From positions 209,191 through 273,190 of the forward strand of contig JAIYDZ010000006.1 of NCBI GenBank assembly GCA_027487215.1: DNA of 64,000 bases, in the 5' to 3' direction. Source of the DNA: Pseudomonadota bacterium (lineage in GTDB: Bacteria > Babelota > Babeliae > Babelales > CAIQNR01). This document shows, piece after piece, positions 20,601 to 51,397 of this stretch; the stretch's first letter is position 1, and each line of letters starts with the position of its first letter. The translations under genes were made by a program, and so were the position numbers. The notes under the pieces are model-generated. The model saw only the letters and a program-made list of their open reading frames with translations, did not search any database and was not told where the DNA came from.

Positions 20601-23600
20601 CAATACTATCAGCTACTTCCTTTGCAGATCTTTCTGCAAATTCCTCTGCAAGTTTTTTAGTTGCATATGCCGTCGTAGCCTCAAGACCTTCTTTTACAAT
20701 AACTTTGCTTCCTGCACGTAAAAAAGCCTCAACCCCTTCCCGTGCCATAAATTCACCAATATTTTCAAGAGCCTCTAGGGCAACTCCTGAACCGGGTGCT
20801 AAAAAGTTCATTGGGTCTAAAAGCATGTTAACAATCAAAGAAGTTACAAAAAGAGCAGTGTTCTTAGCAGCATCTTCTGCAAAAGATTCTGCTGAATCTT
20901 TAACCATGTTTCCCACTCGAGAAAAAAAGTCTTTGGCGCTTTTACTTTCAGATGCCGTAACAGCAGCAGCTCCATACATACTTACATACATTTCAAGCGG
21001 ATTCATTAAAGGAACAGGTGAGAAACGTTGAACGTCTTCAGGTAATACCTCTTTAATAGCACTGAGCGCTATAGAATTTTGCATTGCACCGGGACCTGTA
21101 AAAAGTGAAATTCCTGGCATATAAGTAGAAAGTGGATTAGGCATTCCTAGTGTTAATGCCTGGACCATAAACCCTGAATTGTTTCCCCACCATTCTTTAA
21201 AACTTCCAGCATGCCAAAATGTTTTTCTAAGTGGAGCAGTAAGACCTGTATAAATACTCATAAAAGTCTTTTCAAACCAGTTTTTTTCAGGCTCAGGAAT
21301 ATCAAACTTAGAACGCAATGTCGCAATATTACCGCGTACTATCTGAATAACATTATCCCACGACTGATCGTACACTTTATCTATCGATTTTTTGTCTTCT
21401 TTAAAACTTTGTTTAAAGTCTTTTAGGATGCGTGACGTATCTCTTTTTATATTATTAATACGGATTTTATAGTCTAACTCAATCCCCTTAACATCTCGAT
21501 CAACAAGAAGCTCAAGTTCTTTAAGTTGACTATTAAATAAATCTTTTGAAAGTTTTGCACGCCGTGCAACAAGATCAGCTTTACTCTTTTCAAACTGTTT
21601 TTTGCGCTCAGTAATTTTTGACTTCATTTCATTTTCAAGACGAATTCGTTCATTCTTAAGATCTTGTTTTTCTTGCTCAGCTACGGTGGTAAATTGCTGA
21701 TCTACTTTGGTAGCAATCTCTTTTTGTTTTTCCTTAACTTCACGGACAAAACTTTTACCATCAGGACCTTTAGCAATTTCAGCCTGGTTCTTGAGGTATT
21801 CTGCTCGCTCATCAGATTTTGTTTTGTAGAATTTTGCATACGCTTGATTAATAGCCGCTTCAAGATCTTTTTTAAGTTTATTTATCTTATTGTTTTTATA
21901 AGCAACGTAATCTTTTTCTGCTAAAAAAGTTCGCTGTTTGCCTTCATCGTCAACAAAACTCGTTTGACCATATAATTGTAATTCAAGCTTTGATCGACGA
22001 TGTTCATACTCCATTAACTGAACAGTTTCTTCAAACCCTCTTCTTACAATATCTACTTCTTTTTCAATAACCTGCTGTGCACGTTCTTTGTCATAGTTGT
22101 AATCAAGTTTGTTTTCTATCTCTTTAAGCTTCTTTGTTGAATAATCTCTTCGCAAATCTTGATAAATTTGACGCTCAATTTCTTCTTTTGCTTGGACGCG
22201 TTTAATAAGATTGTCACCTTGAGTTGCTTCCATAGTTAAAAGAACATCTCTAATTTTATTTTGTTCTTCAATCAAACGTTTATATTTTTCAATTTTAGTA
22301 CTCAGTTCAAGAGCATCTACAGAATTTGAACGAGCATTTTTACTTTTTAAAAAGGCAATAAGCTCTGGTTTTTTATTTCTAGGTGCATCCAAGTAGCCTC
22401 GTTCTTGAGCATAATCTAGTGCAGTTTTATTTGCCCTATCAGTTTCATTAACAGGAATGCCTTTTGAAAGAAGATATTCAACTAAAGGTAAAAAACCATA
22501 CGCTGTTGCATAATGAAGTATCGAGCGATTATTATCATGGTAATTTCTAATATCAGCAGCACCGATTGTTTTTTTAATCTGCTCGAGCAGCGTTCCATCC
22601 CAAGTTTTTGCAATTCTGACTAATTGCTTGAACTGTTCCTGCTGAATCTTATTTAAAGAAGGAGAAGGATAATTCATTTGCCGATCGAAAGCTGCTTTTT
22701 TTAATCTTGCTTTTTCTTCTTTTATTTTATTTGAAGCTGCTTTCTTTTGAGACTTTTCTGCATTTATTAATGGAGTATAAGCGGCTCGGTCTTTATAAAG
22801 TTGTGTTTTTAAATTTGCAATATCTTTTTCAACTTTTTTTTCAAGATCTACTTTCTTTGTCTTTACAATTCCTTTTACTCGAACAATTCCTTCATTAAGA
22901 ACACGGTCAGCATCCTTGATTGCTTGTTCGTAAGCTACTTTTGCAGCCTTCTCTTTATTGTTATAAGAAACTTTTGCTGCATAAACATCATCCTCGTATT
23001 TTTTGTCCGCTTGATTATCTGCAACGTTATACTGCTTTTTTGCATTATTAATGCCTTGCTTATATTGAGTAGAGGTAATTTTTTTCTGATCGAACTGTTC
23101 TTGTAATTGTTGCACCTGATCTTGATAGGCGATTTTATTATTATAATCAGAATTTGTTTTTTGGAGCTTAAATTGTGATAACTGAGCGTTACGCTGATCT
23201 AAAGCTTCTTGAAGTGTGGTTTGATAAGTTTTTTTAAGAGAACCGATTTTTGCACGATACGTTTCTTCAATATCTTTTCTTGTAGTTTCATACTCAGCTT
23301 GTGCTGCTGCTACATCGCTATGATATTTGGCCTCAGCATCTACTCTTTTTTGAGTATAGGCTTTTTCAAAAGCTTCTTTTTGACCTACTGCACTTGACCA
23401 AATGGCACGAACAGCCTGATCAGCTTCTTCTTCAATTTCACCCTGACTTTTATAGTCAAACTCCTTAAAAGTGTCCATATTTTGATTAAGACGTTGGGCG
23501 CCTTCCTCAAACTTCTTATCAAAATACTCTGCATGCTCAGCTTCCAGCTTGTCTATTTGCTTTTGAGCGTTCAAAAGAGCATTCTTACTTTCAAGGACTA

Positions 23601-41804: not shown

Positions 41805-43172
41805 TTACAATGGTAAAAGCTGATCATCAAGAACAATCATTTGATCTCGCTCAGGACCAACCGAAACAAAGCTGATAGGCGCCCCGGTCAAAAGTTCTAT
41901 TTTTTTGACAAATGCACGCGCTGCCTCTGGAAGATCAGAAAGTGATCGTGCGTTACGCGTTGAAGTTTTCCATCCAGGCATTGTGATATAGCGAGGTTCA
42001 ATCTTTTTTGCATGATTAATCATTGGTGGCAAATAATCATAATTTTTCTTATCCAGAACATAATCATAACAGATTTTAATTTCATCGAGTGTATCAAGCT
42101 CATCAAGCTTACTAATCGCTAATGAATCAATACCATTAATCAGAATAGCTTCACGAATAAGTACTAGATCAACCCATCCATAGCGCATATCTTCAATTTC
42201 TTCGCAGTATCCACTGTGAGCTTTTTTAAGTTTATCAAGCACCTTTTTATCTTTAATTTCTGCAGGCATTGGGCCTTTACCAATAAGCGTATTATATGAT
42301 TGCACAATACCTAACACATGGCCTACATTGCGAGGACCAACTCCAGCACCAGTAATAATTCCTGACGTGGTAGTACTTGAAGAACTTACATAAGGGTAGC
42401 AACCCATTGAAATATCAAGAAATGCTCCCTGGCACCCTTCAAAAATAACTGCTTTACCCTGAAGAATCAATTTATTGAGTTCTATCTCTAAATCATGCTT
42501 TACATAAGGTCGAATGCGATTAGCATATTCGCTATATTCTTTATAAACTTCTTCAAATACAAAAGGTTTTTCTTCAAAAATTTTTGTAAGTAACTGATTA
42601 GCAAAATCAACCGAATCGCGAAGAACTTCTTTAAACCGTACAGGGTCAATCAAATCTGCAACACGAATTCCAATACGAAGTCGCTTATCAGCTGCAGCTG
42701 CACCAAGACCTTTACGAGAACCTTCATCGGTACCGTTACGATACCAACGAGCAATAAGTTCATCTAATTTTTTGTGATACGGCATTATCACCTGAGCACG
42801 AGATGATATCCATAACCGACCCTCAATAGATTTATTTTTTGATTTGAGTAACTCAATCTCTTTAAATAAAATCTCAGGATCAATTTCCATGCCAGCAGTT
42901 AAATAACATTGAGTATTTTTTCTAAGTACGCCTGATGGAAGAATCATAAGATTGAAACCGTCACCAGCACGACGAATAATATTATTACCCCTTCCCTCAC
43001 TCAAGCTCTGAGAACGAACAACAATATGAGCACGTTCTGCTAGGTAATCGGTATATTTACCTACCCCACCAGAATTCCAGCCCAAAGAAGTAATAACTAA
43101 GCTGCGTGGTATCCACGCTTGCGCTGAAAACATCAAACAACATAAAACAAGTAATACCTTAAGCTTCTTCAT
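41805..43172 (-). CDS. Adenylosuccinate synthetase (PurA)-like protein with signal peptide and degenerate active site
   Basis: Full PurA scaffold (LPSGVL, IMPYH, GIRVADL, FEGCQG, YPYVSSS, GWVD, SKLDELD, MPGW, VSVGP.R); CAGGAG RBS; signal peptide MKKLKVLLVLCCLMFSAQA. Confidence 0.85.
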   Translation of the reverse strand: MKKLKVLLVLCCLMFSAQAWIPRSLVITSLGWNSGGVGKYTDYLAERAHIVVRSQSLSEGRGNNIIRRAGDGFNLMILPSGVLRKNTQCYLTAGMEIDPEILFKEIELLKSKNKSIEGRLWISSRAQVIMPYHKKLDELIARWYRNGTDEGSRKGLGAAAADKRLRIGIRVADLIDPVRFKEVLRDSVDFANQLLTKIFEEKPFVFEEVYKEYSEYANRIRPYVKHDLEIELNKLILQGKAVIFEGCQGAFLDISMGCYPYVSSSSTTTSGIITGAGVGPRNVGHVLGIVQSYNTLIGKGPMPAEIKDKKVLDKLKKAHSGYCEEIEDMRYGWVDLVLIREAILINGIDSLAISKLDELDTLDEIKICYDYVLDKKNYDYLPPMINHAKKIEPRYITMPGWKTSTRNARSLSDLPEAARAFVKKIELLTGAPISFVSVGPERDQMIVLDDQLLPL

Positions 43173-43209
43173 TCTCTCTCCTGCCAATCGGTTATCACCA
43201 CTCGTGGAC

Positions 43210-43238
43210 ATTGTGCCCCAAAAGAAAAAAACTGTAAA
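43210..43238 (-). promoter_or_regulatory. Candidate sigma70 promoter of the PurA-like gene
   Basis: Minus strand TTTACA-N17-CACAAT. Confidence 0.45.
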
Positions 43239-45082: not shown

Positions 45083-45973
45083 TTATTGTCGTAAGAGGCT
45101 TATTATCTCTTTTCTTATCACTGAATCAGTAATATCACGAGCTACATCATCCGCAGTTTGTCCTTTTTTATCTGCACGATCAACCTCAGCACCATTCTCA
45201 AGAAGAAGTTTTACCATTTCAATGTTCCCATTACTAACTGCATAAAAAAGAGCTGTTTTCCCATTACTATCTTGCACGTTAACCAAAACTTTCACGGAGC
45301 CAGTCACATCTACGCTTGTCATTAAATAAGGAGAGTCTCCTTGATTTGAATAAACGGTTTTTGCATGATCTAATAACACTGAAAGTGTTTCAAAATCATT
45401 CAATTCAGCAGCTTTATGCAATGGTGTATTTTCATCTTCATCAAAAACGTTTATATCAAATTCTGGCTTTTCATTTAAAAATCTTTTCACCCCTGCGCTA
45501 TCACCCTTTGCAACAAAAAGCATTAAGGTAGTAAGTGAAAGATTATCGTAAGAACCCTCTTTCCCTCCTTCTAGCTCAAGTTCATCTACAAGTTCATAAA
45601 TCTCTTTTTCCCCTGCATTTGCATAAATAAGTTCTTTTTTTGCCAATTGACTTGCTGAACTCGCTCTGCGAGCAGGTACAGGAGGAGGCAGCTGTTGATA
45701 AAGTTGGCCCGACCCTTGGATTGGAGAAATACGCACAGGCGATGCTGATGAGCCTTTTTTGTCAGGACTTCTTGGAGGCAATGCTGGTGCCCCTTCACCG
45801 TGATCATAGCTCTGGTTCATATAAATTGGTTCTTTGCTAGCACGAATTCGTGGTGGTAATGCTGGCGCAGATTGACCAGCTGGTGATAGATTTCCGTAAA
45901 TAGGCTCTTCTGCCGGTTTAAGCTCTGTAACTATTAAAAATAAAAATAACGTATATAAAAATAATTTCTTCAT
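45083..45973 (-). CDS. Secreted ankyrin-repeat protein with Tyr-motif/Pro-rich N-terminal region
   Basis: Signal peptide; ankyrins NTPLHKAA, GKTALFYAVSNGNIEMVKLLLENGAEVD, GQTADDVA; GGGAGG RBS. Confidence 0.9.
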   Translation of the reverse strand: MKKLFLYTLFLFLIVTELKPAEEPIYGNLSPAGQSAPALPPRIRASKEPIYMNQSYDHGEGAPALPPRSPDKKGSSASPVRISPIQGSGQLYQQLPPPVPARRASSASQLAKKELIYANAGEKEIYELVDELELEGGKEGSYDNLSLTTLMLFVAKGDSAGVKRFLNEKPEFDINVFDEDENTPLHKAAELNDFETLSVLLDHAKTVYSNQGDSPYLMTSVDVTGSVKVLVNVQDSNGKTALFYAVSNGNIEMVKLLLENGAEVDRADKKGQTADDVARDITDSVIRKEIISLLRQ

Positions 45974-46108
45974 GATAACCTCCCATGTTTAAATTCTCCA
46001 TTAATTTAATCATACTCAAATGAGATGATATAATGCAATCAAACCGAGTCTAGGAGCTTATTTTAAAAGGTTTTAAGAAAAAAGTTATTACATACAGCGA
46101 GAAATAAG

Positions 46109-47020: not shown

Positions 47021-47530
47021 GTGAAAAAACTAGTAGTATTTCTGTCACTTTTAACATTCACCATACACTCTGGTGAAAATAAAAACCCTTATCCAGCATA
47101 CCTAGAAGAACCAGCTGCTGAGAATATAAGCTCTTCTTCTATCAACAAAAAATCATCCACTCAATGGTCCAATCCTTTTACTCGTTTTTCAAACATGTAC
47201 GAACAACAAAGATATTTTGCCTTTAGTCCTCATCCAACGCTTCCTATTGCTGCATATGCAGGTTATTTTGCATACTTAATTCTTAAAAATGCTCCTCAAC
47301 ATAAAAATATTTTATATACCGGAGTTACAATTGGCGCTGGACTTGGAATGTGTTCTGGTTTGAAAAACATGAATATTAGATCTACAAAAAAAACACCTTT
47401 TGATTGTAGTCATGTAGCAATTGGAGCCGCTCTAGGAATGGTAGGAATATTTACAGCTTCACAGATTGTTAAAAACACTACTGAACTTTTTTCAACCTTA
47501 TCTGAATCTTTTAAACCTTATCCTCTTTAA
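47021..47530 (+). CDS. Hypothetical secreted/membrane protein
   Basis: GGAGG RBS; signal peptide; three Gly-rich hydrophobic segments. Confidence 0.7.
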   Translation: MKKLVVFLSLLTFTIHSGENKNPYPAYLEEPAAENISSSSINKKSSTQWSNPFTRFSNMYEQQRYFAFSPHPTLPIAAYAGYFAYLILKNAPQHKNILYTGVTIGAGLGMCSGLKNMNIRSTKKTPFDCSHVAIGAALGMVGIFTASQIVKNTTELFSTLSESFKPYPL

Positions 47531-47702
47531 ATAATTAAGAATACAAGCAATTTTTGTAGTCTCTTATTATTAAAATCAAGAGCAGATCAATTAAATGACT
47601 GCTTTTTTATTTTTTATATACAGAGTACTTTCCTCGTAAAACATAAATTGCCTATACTTTTTCTGAATAAAAATAATCACTCCTAAAAAAAAGGGATGCA
47701 TA

Positions 47703-48347
47703 ATGAAAATTTATCTCTTTGCCCTTTCGCTTTTAACTGTTACAGGATCTCTGTATTGCGCACAGTACAACGAAAAATCAATTTCTTCTGATGAAAGATC
47801 TGAATCTGAAAAACAATTTTATAAAGCCCTCACAGAGTTTAAAACTGCTCAATGGGCACTCCCTGCATTACATACAAAACACGAAGAATATAAAAAAAAC
47901 CCTGACTCTCAACTAGAAAAAGACATAGACGAACGATTAGGCGAATTACAAAAAACTTTAGAAGGTCCAATTTGTAAAGATAAACTAGAACAACTTTTTC
48001 AAACAAAAGTGAGAGATCCTAAAAAACCTTCTGCGTTTAGTAGTCCTGTAACGCAACTTAAAATTGGAGAATTAAGATCGCAAGTTTTGGCAAAGCAACT
48101 TATTGAAGAATACTTAATACCTCTTGCTGAAAAATCTGAACAAAATGACAGTGCGTCGTCAAGCCAAGCACTACAAGCCCGTTTAAGCAAAGTTGATAAG
48201 ACAGTAGTTAGTCGTTTGATTGAATTAGTTAAAGTTAACCAACAACCCAAAGCTTATCAAATATTGTTGGGTGCGCTTACACAGCTTCCGGGAGCCCAAC
48301 CTCTATCCGATGCAACAACTCCTGAATGCAAAAAAGCAAAAAACTAA
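47703..48347 (+). CDS. Secreted helical hypothetical protein
   Basis: Signal peptide MKIYLFALSLLTVTGSLYCA. Confidence 0.72.
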   Translation: MKIYLFALSLLTVTGSLYCAQYNEKSISSDERSESEKQFYKALTEFKTAQWALPALHTKHEEYKKNPDSQLEKDIDERLGELQKTLEGPICKDKLEQLFQTKVRDPKKPSAFSSPVTQLKIGELRSQVLAKQLIEEYLIPLAEKSEQNDSASSSQALQARLSKVDKTVVSRLIELVKVNQQPKAYQILLGALTQLPGAQPLSDATTPECKKAKN

Positions 48348-48375
48348 GTAAATTGTAGTTTCCACAGTACAGTTC

Positions 48376-48417
48376 AAAAATAGACAAAGAAATTTATTTT
48401 CTTTTGTCTATTTTTTT
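48376..48417. terminator. Intrinsic terminator
   Basis: AAAAATAGACAAAG...TTTGTCTATTTTTTT. Confidence 0.7.
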
Positions 48418-48494
48418 GAAACACACTCTGTAAAGTCTTTTTTTATTAATAATGACCAGGTTAAAGTAAAAGCGCTACTTTTTGAAACAAAGGA

Positions 48495-49787
48495 ATGCTT
48501 ATGAAACCAGTCTTTTTTACTCTTATTATCTTATCGCTCACTTGCACCATCCTATACGCACCCTTTAAAGATCAGTTTAACGGGACCACTTATACACGAT
48601 TGGCAGCACTTTCTCTTAAAAACTCTTGTATTAAAGAGCTCGCTGCACAGGCTCAATCAGAATCTGATAAAATGTATACAGAGTGGATAGCACTTTCATT
48701 TGCTCATACTTTCCCTACTGACCTTGTTAAACAAACAACCACAGGATCAGGAACACTCTCACAGTCTCAAGGACTGCTTACTGTTTCATCTGGCACCCAA
48801 GTTACTGCAACTGCCTCCTGTTTTAGTCGACCTGCAGTTCATAGCTGCCCAGGAAAAACAGTTATTGCTCAGTTCACTGCAGCTTTTGGTGCGACAAGTT
48901 CACACGGAACAGCAACACAATATTGTGGTCTTTTATCACCCCAAGATGGATACGCCATAGGATATCAAAATAATAGCTTTGGAATTATACATCGCAAAGG
49001 TGGACAACAGGTTGCTTTTATTGCACAAACAGCTTTCAACATTGATACACTCGATGGAAAGACAAACAGTGGTTTTATACTCACTCAAACAAACCTTAAT
49101 TACTACCGAATTTCTTGTGTAGGACTCGATACAGGGCCGGTGATATTTTCTGTCATGAATAATAATGGAACCTGGATTGCTTTTCATCAAATACAAGCAA
49201 CTACTTTACAAACTACACCACTCATCGCAGCCGCATCGCTTCCTCTAGCAATTGAAATTACTAAAAGTACAAGCGATGCAACACCTCTTTCTATTAAAAC
49301 TACCTCCTGGAGTGCAAAATCTGAAGGTGCAAACATTCCTACACGAATTTGGTCTTCCCAGGTAAGCGACAAACGTATTAATGGCAATACAAACCAACAC
49401 GTACTGACTATACGAGTAAAAGAACAGTTTAAAGGAAGCCTTAATTTTGGAAGACTCCGTATGCTTAGAACCGTTAGCTCAACAAGTGAAACTAATAAAA
49501 TTTTCCAAATTGAGTGTATTAAAAATGCTACGATCACCGGCGCTATTTATACTGATATCAACACAAATTTTTCTATCACAGAAGTCACTACCACAGGCAC
49601 TATTTCAGGAGGAATTTCACTTTTTAAATTAAACGGCTCAAGCACCTTAGCCAGTTCTTTTAATTTTCCACCAGATCAAATGATAATAGATCTTTTTCCA
49701 GGAGAAACTATAACCCTAGTTGCCTCAGAGAACATAGCTGGTGACATAAATATAAATGCTAACTGTGCGTGGCAAGAATATTACTAA
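48495..49787 (+). CDS. Secreted Thr/Ser-rich beta-sandwich (lectin/ConA-like) hypothetical protein
   Basis: Signal peptide; beta-strand pattern; FTAAF..GYAIGY..FN.D.LDG; C-terminal WQE. Confidence 0.6.
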   Translation: MLMKPVFFTLIILSLTCTILYAPFKDQFNGTTYTRLAALSLKNSCIKELAAQAQSESDKMYTEWIALSFAHTFPTDLVKQTTTGSGTLSQSQGLLTVSSGTQVTATASCFSRPAVHSCPGKTVIAQFTAAFGATSSHGTATQYCGLLSPQDGYAIGYQNNSFGIIHRKGGQQVAFIAQTAFNIDTLDGKTNSGFILTQTNLNYYRISCVGLDTGPVIFSVMNNNGTWIAFHQIQATTLQTTPLIAAASLPLAIEITKSTSDATPLSIKTTSWSAKSEGANIPTRIWSSQVSDKRINGNTNQHVLTIRVKEQFKGSLNFGRLRMLRTVSSTSETNKIFQIECIKNATITGAIYTDINTNFSITEVTTTGTISGGISLFKLNGSSTLASSFNFPPDQMIIDLFPGETITLVASENIAGDININANCAWQEYY

Positions 49788-49792
49788 ACAGC

Positions 49793-51397
49793 TTAGGATG
49801 GAATTGCTCGTTCAATAATCTCGCTATTTTCAAACTGACTCATTGAGCGTAGTTCCGTAAGTTCCGTTAAGTAAGCAACACACACTGGAAAAGCATTTAC
49901 GTTATCGTAAGGCGAAAGCTTTATATCATAGTTATTAAAAGAAAGACCATTGGCTGAACCATTACGATAGGCAAAGTTACCAATAAAACAGGTTACACTA
50001 GAATCTGAGATGTCTTTAATTCCATACCCGTTAACACCGGTATTGAAAAGTAGCTTAGTATCACGCACCACACATGAACTTGCACCATCTAACAGAATTC
50101 CATAAGCATTTGCACCTGGAGAATTTTGTCCAGAACTTTCTGATTGAACAACAGTGCAAAACGACTCACCGCCAGTCAAATAAAATCCGACAGCATTACC
50201 TGTCTGAGAGCCACTTTTCATTCCTCGAGCACTACATTGACTAAAAGAATTTCCCGTACAATTGGTAGTATAAAATCCATACGCATTGCCAGAGGTCCCT
50301 GTACTTACATTGGCACGCGCTTGGCACTCATTAACAGAACAAGAAGCAAGACTGTCAAAACTCATACCATAGACTGTTTGAGAGCTTGAGTTATTAACAA
50401 CAACAGACCGATCAATACGATGACCGCCTAAATTCTCAAGGCTGCTTGATATACATTTAATTCCATAGAAAGCACCTCCACGAGCACTATTATTCGATAA
50501 AGAACATTCAGTTATTGTACATCCATCAACATTGTCAAAAACAAACCCTGAAACCTCTCCACTGAAACTTTTATTGCAATGAGCTTGGCATCGAGTAAGT
50601 TCATTACTTGAACCCCCCACAAATCTCATTCCATACGCAGAGCCCGTTGTACCAGCCTTATTACAATCTGCCGAACAATCAACACACTTTACATGTGTCG
50701 ATCCGGTACAATAAAAGCCAGTCGCATTGCCAGCTCCAGCAGTCTCATTACGATTAAAACTACAATTTTCAAGTTCTATATTTTCACTATCAACCACCAT
50801 AAGCCCAATTGCACCATTGACCGCTTGCGTACTTGCACCGTTACAACGGCTTATTTTAACATTTTTAAGAACAACATCTTTGCAATTGGCATCAACCAAC
50901 ATTCCCATTAATGAACATTTATCAATTGTCATGTTTTCTAAAGCAATACCAGTACATCCCTGACCCACAATAATCCCCGTGCCAGAAGTACCAGAAATAA
51001 CTCCATTTAAAATTCTAATATTACTCAGTCCTGAAGCTATTTTTATAATGGTTCCACCGGTTGCAGTTCTTCCACTGGTTATAGAATATCCACGCAAATC
51101 AACCGTCACATTACTCGAGGTAATTTCAAGAAACGTAACATTGTTGTTAATCGGATCAATTGAAATGTTTTCAATAAAATAAAAACGGAAATTGGTAGAA
51201 ATAGTTTTCATAGACACATTAGCAAGCACAGCATTATTTATATCGCGCATACTAACAACATTATTAAAGGGTCTACCTACATCATCAGTAGAACCCCAAG
51301 TCACCATGCGATCAGACACATCTACACAATGCATTGCTGCGCTATATACCAATCCGATCAAACCAATTGTTACCATTAACTTCTGAAATATTTTCAC
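49793..51397 (-). CDS. Secreted right-handed beta-helix (pectin-lyase-like) protein
   Basis: Signal peptide; NVTVDLRGY, repeated N/C..I..C...N..G..YGF rungs. Confidence 0.8.
   Translation of the reverse strand: MKIFQKLMVTIGLIGLVYSAAMHCVDVSDRMVTWGSTDDVGRPFNNVVSMRDINNAVLANVSMKTISTNFRFYFIENISIDPINNNVTFLEITSSNVTVDLRGYSITSGRTATGGTIIKIASGLSNIRILNGVISGTSGTGIIVGQGCTGIALENMTIDKCSLMGMLVDANCKDVVLKNVKISRCNGASTQAVNGAIGLMVVDSENIELENCSFNRNETAGAGNATGFYCTGSTHVKCVDCSADCNKAGTTGSAYGMRFVGGSSNELTRCQAHCNKSFSGEVSGFVFDNVDGCTITECSLSNNSARGGAFYGIKCISSSLENLGGHRIDRSVVVNNSSSQTVYGMSFDSLASCSVNECQARANVSTGTSGNAYGFYTTNCTGNSFSQCSARGMKSGSQTGNAVGFYLTGGESFCTVVQSESSGQNSPGANAYGILLDGASSCVVRDTKLLFNTGVNGYGIKDISDSSVTCFIGNFAYRNGSANGLSFNNYDIKLSPYDNVNAFPVCVAYLTELTELRSMSQFENSEIIERAIPS

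Follow-up and report, generated by a model that had tools for sequence, protein, structure and literature searches.

What would a small ankyrin-repeat protein from an uncultured, genome-reduced bacterium do with a row of tyrosine and proline motifs that resemble the docking sites of eukaryotic adaptor proteins? This question is raised by one gene in a 64,000-nucleotide stretch of contig JAIYDZ010000006.1 (GenBank assembly GCA_027487215.1, positions 209,191 to 273,190 of the forward strand), which we refer to as the window. An earlier note on this DNA had described the gene product, here called P0001, as a translocated ankyrin effector with an EPIYA-like array that mimics a Grb2/Src scaffold. 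We find that the motifs in the N-terminal arm of P0001 are more frequent than chance would give and that every one of their core positions is retained in P0002, the one true relative detected. This pattern points to a mimic of adaptor docking sites that would be read by SH2 and SH3 domains after phosphorylation by the host, because asparagine is invariant two residues after four of the tyrosines, Glu-Pro-Ile/Val precedes two tyrosines, and three motifs are of the class II SH3-ligand type.

Motif content and conservation of the arm

The P0001 open reading frame (ORF) is the sole long frame at its position and translates to 296 amino acids (Table 1). Five Pfam ankyrin families exceed their gathering cut-offs in the product (Ank_2 with 75.5 bits against a cut-off of 27.3, E 4.9e-21; Ank_4 with 54.5, Ank with 53.0, Ank_5 with 52.2, and Ank_3 with 47.5 bits). 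An AlphaFold2 model from a 30-row alignment folds residues 144 to 296 into four helix pairs, mostly at predicted local distance difference test (pLDDT) values above 90; a single-sequence model (mean pLDDT, 46) was set aside. Foldseek places designed ankyrin proteins at the top of its matches to the model, at least 500 of which have E ≤ 0.001. Ankyrin repeats thus follow the arm, as the earlier note had claimed. It had also placed a disordered region before the repeats, and residues 21 to 140 are indeed predicted to be disordered: their 10-residue blocks have mean pLDDT values of 41 to 64, regular structure is absent before residue 106, and disorder-promoting residues make up 70% of the arm versus 42% of the ankyrin part.

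All nine motif strings quoted in that note, six around tyrosines and three rich in proline, are present in P0001. Its count of four Y-x-N motifs among the six tyrosine motifs is correct; the other two are Y-x-x-[LV], and the three proline motifs are P-x-x-P-x-R. A seventh arm tyrosine, Y56, lies outside any motif. The arm (residues 21 to 145) has just four asparagines, and all four stand at +2 from a tyrosine.

To gauge these counts, residues 21 to 145 were subjected to 200,000 composition-preserving shuffles. Y-x-N occurs 4 times against a shuffle mean of 0.22 (P 5e-6) and P-x-x-P-x-R 3 times, where shuffles average 0.09 (P 2e-5), so the motif density is above the shuffled background, which the earlier note had named as a check. 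The joint counts of the two motifs were reached in 0 of the 200,000 shuffles, and the count of three E-x-I-Y motifs was never reached either. Y-x-x-hydrophobic is mildly enriched (4 versus 1.2, P 0.017). Of the 1253 ORFs of at least 70 amino acids in the genome, none but P0001 has two or more P-x-x-P-x-R motifs, and no other contains at least two Y-x-N plus at least one P-x-x-P-x-R within 125 residues.

Searching residues 1 to 145 with phmmer against 1.84 billion cluster representatives returned P0002 (E 2.3e-20), a 296-amino-acid protein represented by a single sequence on one 6,061-bp ENA contig. The two proteins are 47% identical overall, and their arms are identical at 51 of 125 positions. 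We defined 21 core motif positions as the tyrosine and asparagine of the four Y-x-N motifs, the tyrosine and +3 residue of the two Y-x-x-[LV] motifs, and the two prolines and the arginine of the three P-x-x-P-x-R motifs. All 21 are identical, compared with 30 of the 104 other positions of residues 21 to 145 (29%; hypergeometric P 3e-10). In 300 rounds of shuffling the P0002 arm and aligning it anew, the mean number of core matches was 5.7 and the highest was 10 out of 21. Conservation across the arm is high in tyrosine (6/7), asparagine (4/4), proline (13/16), and arginine (4/6) and low in alanine (3/14), serine (4/14), glycine (2/11), and glutamine (0/7). The nine motifs are collinear, their order in P0002 being EPIYQN, APALPPR, EPVYVN, PVVPPR, TYSSL, PPSVPPRR, KYQN, PIYQAV, and EYDNV. 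A fourth SH3-type site, with lysine as its last residue (PRSPDK), is also shared, giving four P-x-x-P-x-[RK] sites that align in the two proteins, all within the low-confidence segment. The P0002 arm is itself enriched in both motif types (100,000 shuffles; Y-x-N, P 9e-5; P-x-x-P-x-R, P 3.4e-4). The conservation that the earlier note expected in homologs is thus found in P0002, and, judged from this alignment, the arm motifs are under selection.

The same results bear on whether the array is a functionless chance pattern in a proline- and tyrosine-containing low-complexity region. The motifs were chosen post hoc, after the sequence had been read, and the first two modules (EPIYxN followed by APALPPR) are an internal duplication, so the motif counts are not fully independent. 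The codons of these modules speak to their age: 12 of 13 paired motif codons encode the same residue, 8 of those 12 by different, synonymous codons, and the spacers between them are unrelated. On this codon evidence, the modules are an old duplication under selection. Together with the shuffle probabilities, the same enrichment in P0002, and 21 conserved core positions where realigned shuffles gave 10 at most, this makes chance scarcely credible. Chance would regain weight only if P0002 were a chimeric or contaminant copy of the same sequence, and 47% identity argues against that.

Possible readers of the motifs

If the arm motifs are selected, the residues that are held constant may indicate what reads them. 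Y-x-N is kept at all four sites in P0002, while the +1 residue varies and the +3 residue changes (L/W, Q/I, A/T, and L/V), being hydrophobic in both proteins at only one of the four sites. Since asparagine at +2 is invariant while +3 varies, the constraint lies on the asparagine rather than on a hydrophobic +3 residue, which fits a reader of phosphorylated Y-x-N (pY-x-N) better than sorting through Y-x-x-hydrophobic signals. The EPIY context (glutamate at −3 and isoleucine or valine at −1), kept at two sites, suits recognition by tyrosine kinases. We also take PPPVPARR and its P0002 counterpart PPSVPPRR to resemble the Sos-type proline motif closely, and Y-M-N-Q-S to be similar to a receptor-tail Grb2 site.

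We propose, tentatively and at slightly less than an even chance of being right, that P0001 is an exported, host-directed ankyrin effector whose arm acts as an adaptor-like docking strip for host SH3 and SH2 domains, its tyrosines being phosphorylated by the host. P0001 would be exported via Sec and might be released through machinery of the secretin and type II secretion system (T2SS) kind or in outer-membrane vesicles. Its disordered arm would then offer short linear motifs of eukaryotic type: the three P-x-x-P-x-R motifs would bind host SH3 domains, and the four Y-x-N and two Y-x-x-[LV] motifs would receive phosphate from tyrosine kinases of the host and then be read by SH2 domains, those at the Y-x-N sites demanding asparagine at +2, as Grb2-type SH2 domains do. 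The four-repeat ankyrin domain at the C terminus may hold a further host partner, and P0001, as a small adaptor or docking protein, would rewire host signaling or the cytoskeleton. Release into the host cytosol, phosphorylation, the SH2 and SH3 partners, and the identity of the host are what we infer here; the terms Grb2/Src and translocated, as used in the earlier note, draw only on motif resemblance. A more specific version, in which a Dependentiae parasite of a freshwater protist secretes the docking protein through Sec and T2SS-type machinery instead of injecting it and the host-phosphorylated protein captures an SH3-SH2-type adaptor through its alternating pY-x-N and P-x-x-P-x-R motifs, is rather doubtful as a whole.

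Selection on the array would also be expected if P0001 were an exported effector that works free of phosphotyrosine, through SH3 binding and through tyrosines that serve as sorting signals, as Atg8-interacting (LC3-interacting region [LIR]-like) motifs, or as ligands of other host domains. Several tyrosine motifs do fit such classes: with simplified patterns, Y-x-x-[LMVIF] aligns at four sites in both proteins (one of them, Y7, within the signal peptide, the others in the arm) and an LIR-like pattern at two, and the pair EIYELV/PIYQAV lies in acidic surroundings. A host tyrosine kinase would then be unnecessary, and SH3 domains occur in all eukaryotes. However, such an effector would not account for asparagine at +2 being invariant at four of four sites, for +3 not being kept hydrophobic at the Q/I and A/T sites, or for the retained EPIY contexts, and the enrichment of Y-x-x-hydrophobic is weak. 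We consider this explanation unlikely, though it deserves real weight.

The invariant asparagines could instead be N-glycosylation sequons (N-x-S/T) suited to a host secretory or vacuolar compartment, rather than the +2 residues of SH2 ligands. N28-L-S and N53-Q-S are sequons, as are the aligned N-W-S and N-I-T of P0002, and N144-L-S is one in P0001 only. Yet neither protein has a sequon at N119, P0002 lacks one at N144, and sequons leave both the invariant tyrosine two residues upstream and the EPIY context unexplained, which makes this very improbable.

EPIYA-type effectors have been described in a handful of animal pathogens, which deliver them by injection. According to PMC3593179, the class (CagA, Tarp, Tir, BepD-F, LspA, LI0666, and AteA) comprises unrelated proteins without homology outside the motif, in which E-P-I-Y-type tyrosine motifs have been repeated by duplication within disordered segments; P0001 shares the repeated motifs, the disordered segment, and the expansion by duplication. 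The class is defined by delivery through a type III or type IV secretion system (T3SS or T4SS) and by demonstrated phosphorylation and SH2 binding (PMC3593179), whereas P0001 is a candidate for phosphorylation, in a genome where no T3SS or T4SS marker was found. Known sites mostly have Ala, Glu, Asp, or Thr at +1, and those in the table of PMC2999339 lack Asn at +2; hence the P0001 array resembles EPIYA only on the upstream side of the tyrosine (EPIYG and EPIYM), and the label given to it in the earlier note holds for that side, while its +1 and +2 residues are unlike those of known sites. P0001 differs further in that asparagine at +2 would be the downstream specificity residue and in that its tyrosine motifs alternate with SH3-ligand motifs.

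Within this class, Anaplasma phagocytophilum AnkA invites the closest comparison, since it too is an ankyrin protein of an intracellular bacterium with several E-x-I-Y-type motifs located next to the repeats in a disordered stretch (PMC3593179 and PMC2999339). AnkA is a protein of 160 to 190 kDa with about 11 N-terminal repeats and C-terminal motifs, and it is delivered by a VirB/VirD4 T4SS (PMC3593179). P0001, in contrast, has 296 residues, with its motifs first and four repeats last, a Sec-type N-terminus, and no VirB4 found in the genome. The AnkA motifs lack asparagine at +2 as far as PMC2999339 describes them, and there is no sequence relationship to P0001, whose arm matches only P0002. 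Eukaryotic docking sites for SH3-SH2-SH3 adaptors, with pY-x-N in receptor tails and docking proteins and P-x-x-P-x-R in, for example, the proline motifs of Sos, share the Y-x-N and P-x-x-P-x-R consensus with P0001, which differs from them in being encoded by a bacterial gene of native composition with no eukaryotic homology detected.

P0001 may therefore be described as a variation on the idea of EPIYA-like effectors, set in a new lineage, one that is uncultured and genome reduced, in which SH3-ligand motifs have been added and markers of injection systems were not found. No paper that connects Dependentiae with EPIYA-type motifs emerged from a literature search, and a 2026 review of EPIYA effectors mentions neither SH3, Grb2, amoebae, nor protists. 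If the docking role is real, P0001 would for the first time extend EPIYA-like effectors beyond Proteobacteria and Chlamydiae and beyond animal hosts, and it would give a handle on the role of the many secreted ankyrin proteins of Dependentiae. It would also predict a host that has tyrosine kinases and an SH2 domain reading asparagine at +2, bear on whether parasites target phosphotyrosine/SH2 signaling in protists, and imply that bacterial parasites have long targeted such signaling in a unicellular host.

Export, host, and points against a docking role

The genome that encodes P0001 (G000 in our numbering) comprises 995 kb in 7 contigs and is 94% complete. It carries four ATP/ADP translocase (TLC) genes in tandem outside the window (G000:C4:56477-61695), along with two secretins and a T2SS-type ATPase. 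The organism looks like a Dependentiae-like energy parasite from fresh water. These genome features fit such a placement, as does the finding that its phylum and its order comprise the same 261 genomes in the set searched. No match to a PK_Tyr_Ser-Thr kinase, an SH2 domain, or a classical tyrosine phosphatase was found in this genome; therefore, any phosphorylation of P0001 would be host derived.

Secreted ankyrin proteins are a feature of the group. A cultured relative, Chromulinavorax, is reported to carry signal peptides on 44% of its coding sequences and on 78% of its 98 ankyrin proteins; it sheds outer-membrane vesicles and is located in the cytoplasm of its host by 3 h postinfection (PMC6561590). 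A Sec-exported protein of a cytoplasmic, vesicle-shedding parasite could therefore reach the host cytosol without an injection machine. Like the secreted ankyrin proteins of Chromulinavorax destructans, P0001 is signal bearing and belongs to a reduced, ATP-importing genome (PMC6561590). There are 14 ankyrin ORFs in the P0001 genome, all with basic-hydrophobic, signal-like N-termini. P0001 differs from the other 13 in having a long motif arm and any P-x-x-P-x-R at all; when the first 40 residues were compared, most of the others passed straight from the signal into ankyrin-type sequence. A tandem cluster of signal-bearing ankyrin ORFs, at least five in number (176, 545, 208, 228, and 210 amino acids), lies at G000:C4:287492-291824, about 14 kb past the end of the window, and a signal-bearing ORF of 3002 amino acids near window position 22384 (G000:C4:231574) has an Ank_2 match (E 5e-9).

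Whether a suitable host exists is a separate matter. The Acanthamoeba genome holds 22 protein tyrosine kinases, 12 protein tyrosine phosphatases, and 48 SH2 proteins, according to PMC4053784, and a host with tyrosine kinases is plausible.

Several points weigh against a host-docking role, besides the post hoc choice of motifs, the duplicated modules, and the fit of several tyrosines to nonphospho classes. The family has two members, and because only these are known, its conservation rests on a single comparison. Grb2-type adaptors are undocumented in known Dependentiae hosts: the word Grb2 occurs 0 times in the text of the Acanthamoeba genome paper (PMC4053784). PMC4342544 mentions neither Grb2, Crk, Nck, nor adaptors. 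Neither a T3SS marker (FHIPEP) nor a T4SS marker (CagE/TrbE/VirB4) had a match in the 94%-complete genome, so the delivery route must differ from that of the cited EPIYA effectors, and entry of P0001 into the host cytosol is assumed. Y117 and Y126 lie in weakly predicted helices and Y142 is next to the folded domain, so these three tyrosines may be poorly accessible in the model. The one trace from an RNA library (run X9) is a 565-nucleotide contig of an approximately 95% identical relative that covers only 45230-45572 (residues 134 to 248) and could be DNA carry-over; as the contig of such a relative that ends outside the motif region, it says nothing about P0001 expression or the motif region. 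In sum, the host-adaptor mimicry claimed in the earlier note keeps its motif selection, its export context, and its invariant asparagine, while the secretion systems that deliver known effectors of this kind were not found.

The N-terminus is the last of these points. It has a basic n-region (MKK), a 13-residue hydrophobic core, and a c-region (TELKPA), and so looks like the signal peptide claimed earlier, but the small −3/−1 residues of a canonical signal-peptidase site are absent, with lysine at −3 and proline at −2 before Ala21. For want of such a site, P0001 might remain tethered to the inner membrane of the bacterium. This would suit a bacterial envelope protein with an uncleaved anchor, whose proline-rich arm is a spacer across the periplasm and whose ankyrin domain binds a bacterial partner. 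The residues after the hydrophobic core agree with this, as does the unusual conservation of residues 1 to 20 (14/20 match in P0001 and P0002, with ELKPA invariant, versus 29% of the arm outside motifs), and periplasmic ankyrin proteins exist in bacteria (reference 30 of PMC6561590, as cited there). A spacer, however, leaves unexplained why Y-x-N and P-x-x-P-x-R motifs stay invariant and in fixed order amid drift; 13 hydrophobic residues would make a short membrane span; and the gene is an accessory insertion, missing at this site in two relatives and not found in the 260 other genomes of the group. An envelope role thus seems quite unlikely.

Distribution and genomic setting

Homologs of the arm were sought widely. 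Word-indexed searches with residues 1 to 145 of P0001 (1 of 2387 candidates) and residues 1 to 140 of P0002 each returned the query itself only, and a two-row profile run against longer proteins found only P0001 and P0002 among 8000 scored candidates. Besides P0002, the phmmer search over 1.84 billion representatives gave only two matches, P0003 and P0004, which are long, repeat-rich proteins judged on inspection to be low complexity, and it detected no eukaryotic homolog. Whole P0001 against 41 relatives gave ankyrin-level matches only; among the matches listed, the best nonself match (E 1.9e-12) covers residues 161 to 280, and two weak ones extend back to residues 60 and 104. A search of genome contigs found 10 loci, all confined to residues 127 to 296. 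An N-terminal profile run against the 261 genomes of the group was convincing only in G000; a match in G226 (E 0.009) was rejected, as its frame is interrupted by stops. Pattern scans gave 596 matches in metagenome contigs and 29 in viral contigs, none of them confirmed; none of 60 metagenome loci with a GKTALFYAV-coding pattern had an N-terminal match, and the ESM Atlas yielded no usable match to P0001. Metagenomes from fresh water and lakes, produced by several studies, contain the gene itself, and the contigs from DNA runs (X4, X5, and X6) are identical fragments that carry no variant information.

The DNA pattern for EP[IVM]YxN is present in 192 of the 261 genomes, and among the matches listed, single occurrences belong to folded housekeeping or envelope proteins, the common EP[IM]YKN matches fitting a ribonucleotide-reductase motif seen in locus L045. 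Two EP[IVM]Y motifs 30 to 150 nucleotides (10 to 50 codons) apart were matched in 4 of the 261 genomes, compared with 8 matches in a reversed control, and the three nonself matches were rejected for in-frame stops. Nine EP[IVM]YxN matches in eight inspected loci are the FEP[IV]YGNG motif of another family. This family of secreted proteins of about 470 to 600 amino acids occurs across the group (L108-L115; genomes G003, G149, G148, G137, G058, G129, and G127) and has an invariant FEP[IV]YGNG.H in a folded region; its members may be outer-membrane proteins and are tied to P0001 by the tetrapeptide alone.

Table 1. Features of the P0001 gene; positions are those of the window.
Feature	Position	Strand	Basis or remark
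Whole P0001 gene, 296 codons plus stop	45083..45973	-	Same frame as G000:C4:254273-255163
Shine-Dalgarno-like GGGAGG, 6 nt 5' of the ATG	45979..45984	-	Read from the sequence
Residues 1-21: MKK, 13-residue hydrophobic core, TELKPA; signal-peptide-like, cleavage site uncertain	45911..45973	-	Sequence; model helix 2-16
EEPIYGNL (Y26, Y-x-N); P0002 EPIYQNW	45887..45910	-	Sequence and alignment
PALPPR (37-42), class II SH3-ligand-type P-x-x-P-x-R; APALPPR identical in P0002	45848..45865	-	Sequence and alignment
KEPIYMNQ (Y51, Y-x-N); P0002 QEPVYVNI	45812..45835	-	Sequence and alignment
PALPPR (63-68); P0002 PVVPPR; then conserved [ST]-P-x-K (69-72)	45770..45787	-	Sequence and alignment
QLYQQL (Y92, Y-x-x-L); P0002 ETYSSL	45689..45706	-	Sequence and alignment
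PPPVPARR (96-103); P0002 PPSVPPRR; then conserved R-R-x-S (102-105)	45665..45688	-	Sequence and alignment
ELIYANA (Y117, Y-x-N); P0002 VKYQNT; in low-confidence helix 106-119	45614..45634	-	Alignment and model
KEIYELV (Y126, Y-x-x-V, acidic surroundings); P0002 NPIYQAV; low-confidence helix 122-131	45587..45607	-	Alignment and model
GSYDNL (Y142, Y-x-N); P0002 GEYDNV; adjoins first ankyrin helix (start 144)	45539..45556	-	Block 141-150, mean pLDDT 82
Ankyrin-repeat domain of four helix pairs (residues 144-296), with a loop insertion near 210-222	45086..45544	-	Pfam, model, Foldseek

The GC content of the P0001 gene is 0.386 against 0.381 for the genome (391 long ORFs: mean, 0.388; standard deviation, 0.026); therefore, the gene is not a compositionally foreign, recent import. 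Its frame ends in three consecutive stop codons, and promoter-like matches upstream of it are not above shuffled sequence (7 versus 4.7 ± 2.3). Two short conserved motifs directly follow proline motifs of the arm: [ST]-P-x-K (S69-K72, window 45758..45769) after the second and R-R-x-S (R102-S105, window 45659..45670, with R-R at 45665..45670) after the third. They are possible proline-directed and basophilic kinase sites, respectively, and could switch SH3 binding.

The gene order around P0001 is PurA, an SPFH/Band 7 protein, NfeD, P0001, an alpha/beta hydrolase-like protein, four further genes, and transketolase. The P0001 gene is accessory and was inserted at a spot where the otherwise conserved synteny varies, because two genomes of the same family, G003 and G005, have NfeD and the hydrolase adjacent, about 160 to 190 bp apart, without it; these nearest genomes compared are distant, their hydrolase orthologs being 41 to 42% identical. 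The four genes between the hydrolase and transketolase (window 47021..51397) encode signal-bearing orphans of 169 and 214 amino acids, a 430-amino-acid orphan, and a 534-amino-acid right-handed beta-helix protein. In G003, the hydrolase adjoins transketolase directly, so that the four genes, missing from that site, form a second accessory insertion beside the ankyrin gene. On the other side of P0001, PurA (adenylosuccinate synthetase; Pfam E 2.7e-115; window 41805..43211, minus strand) has a basic-hydrophobic, signal-like N-terminal extension, which is odd for a cytoplasmic enzyme; each of the three related genomes examined has this extension, including L044 (5767..7134, minus strand) and L045 (11268..12692, plus strand).

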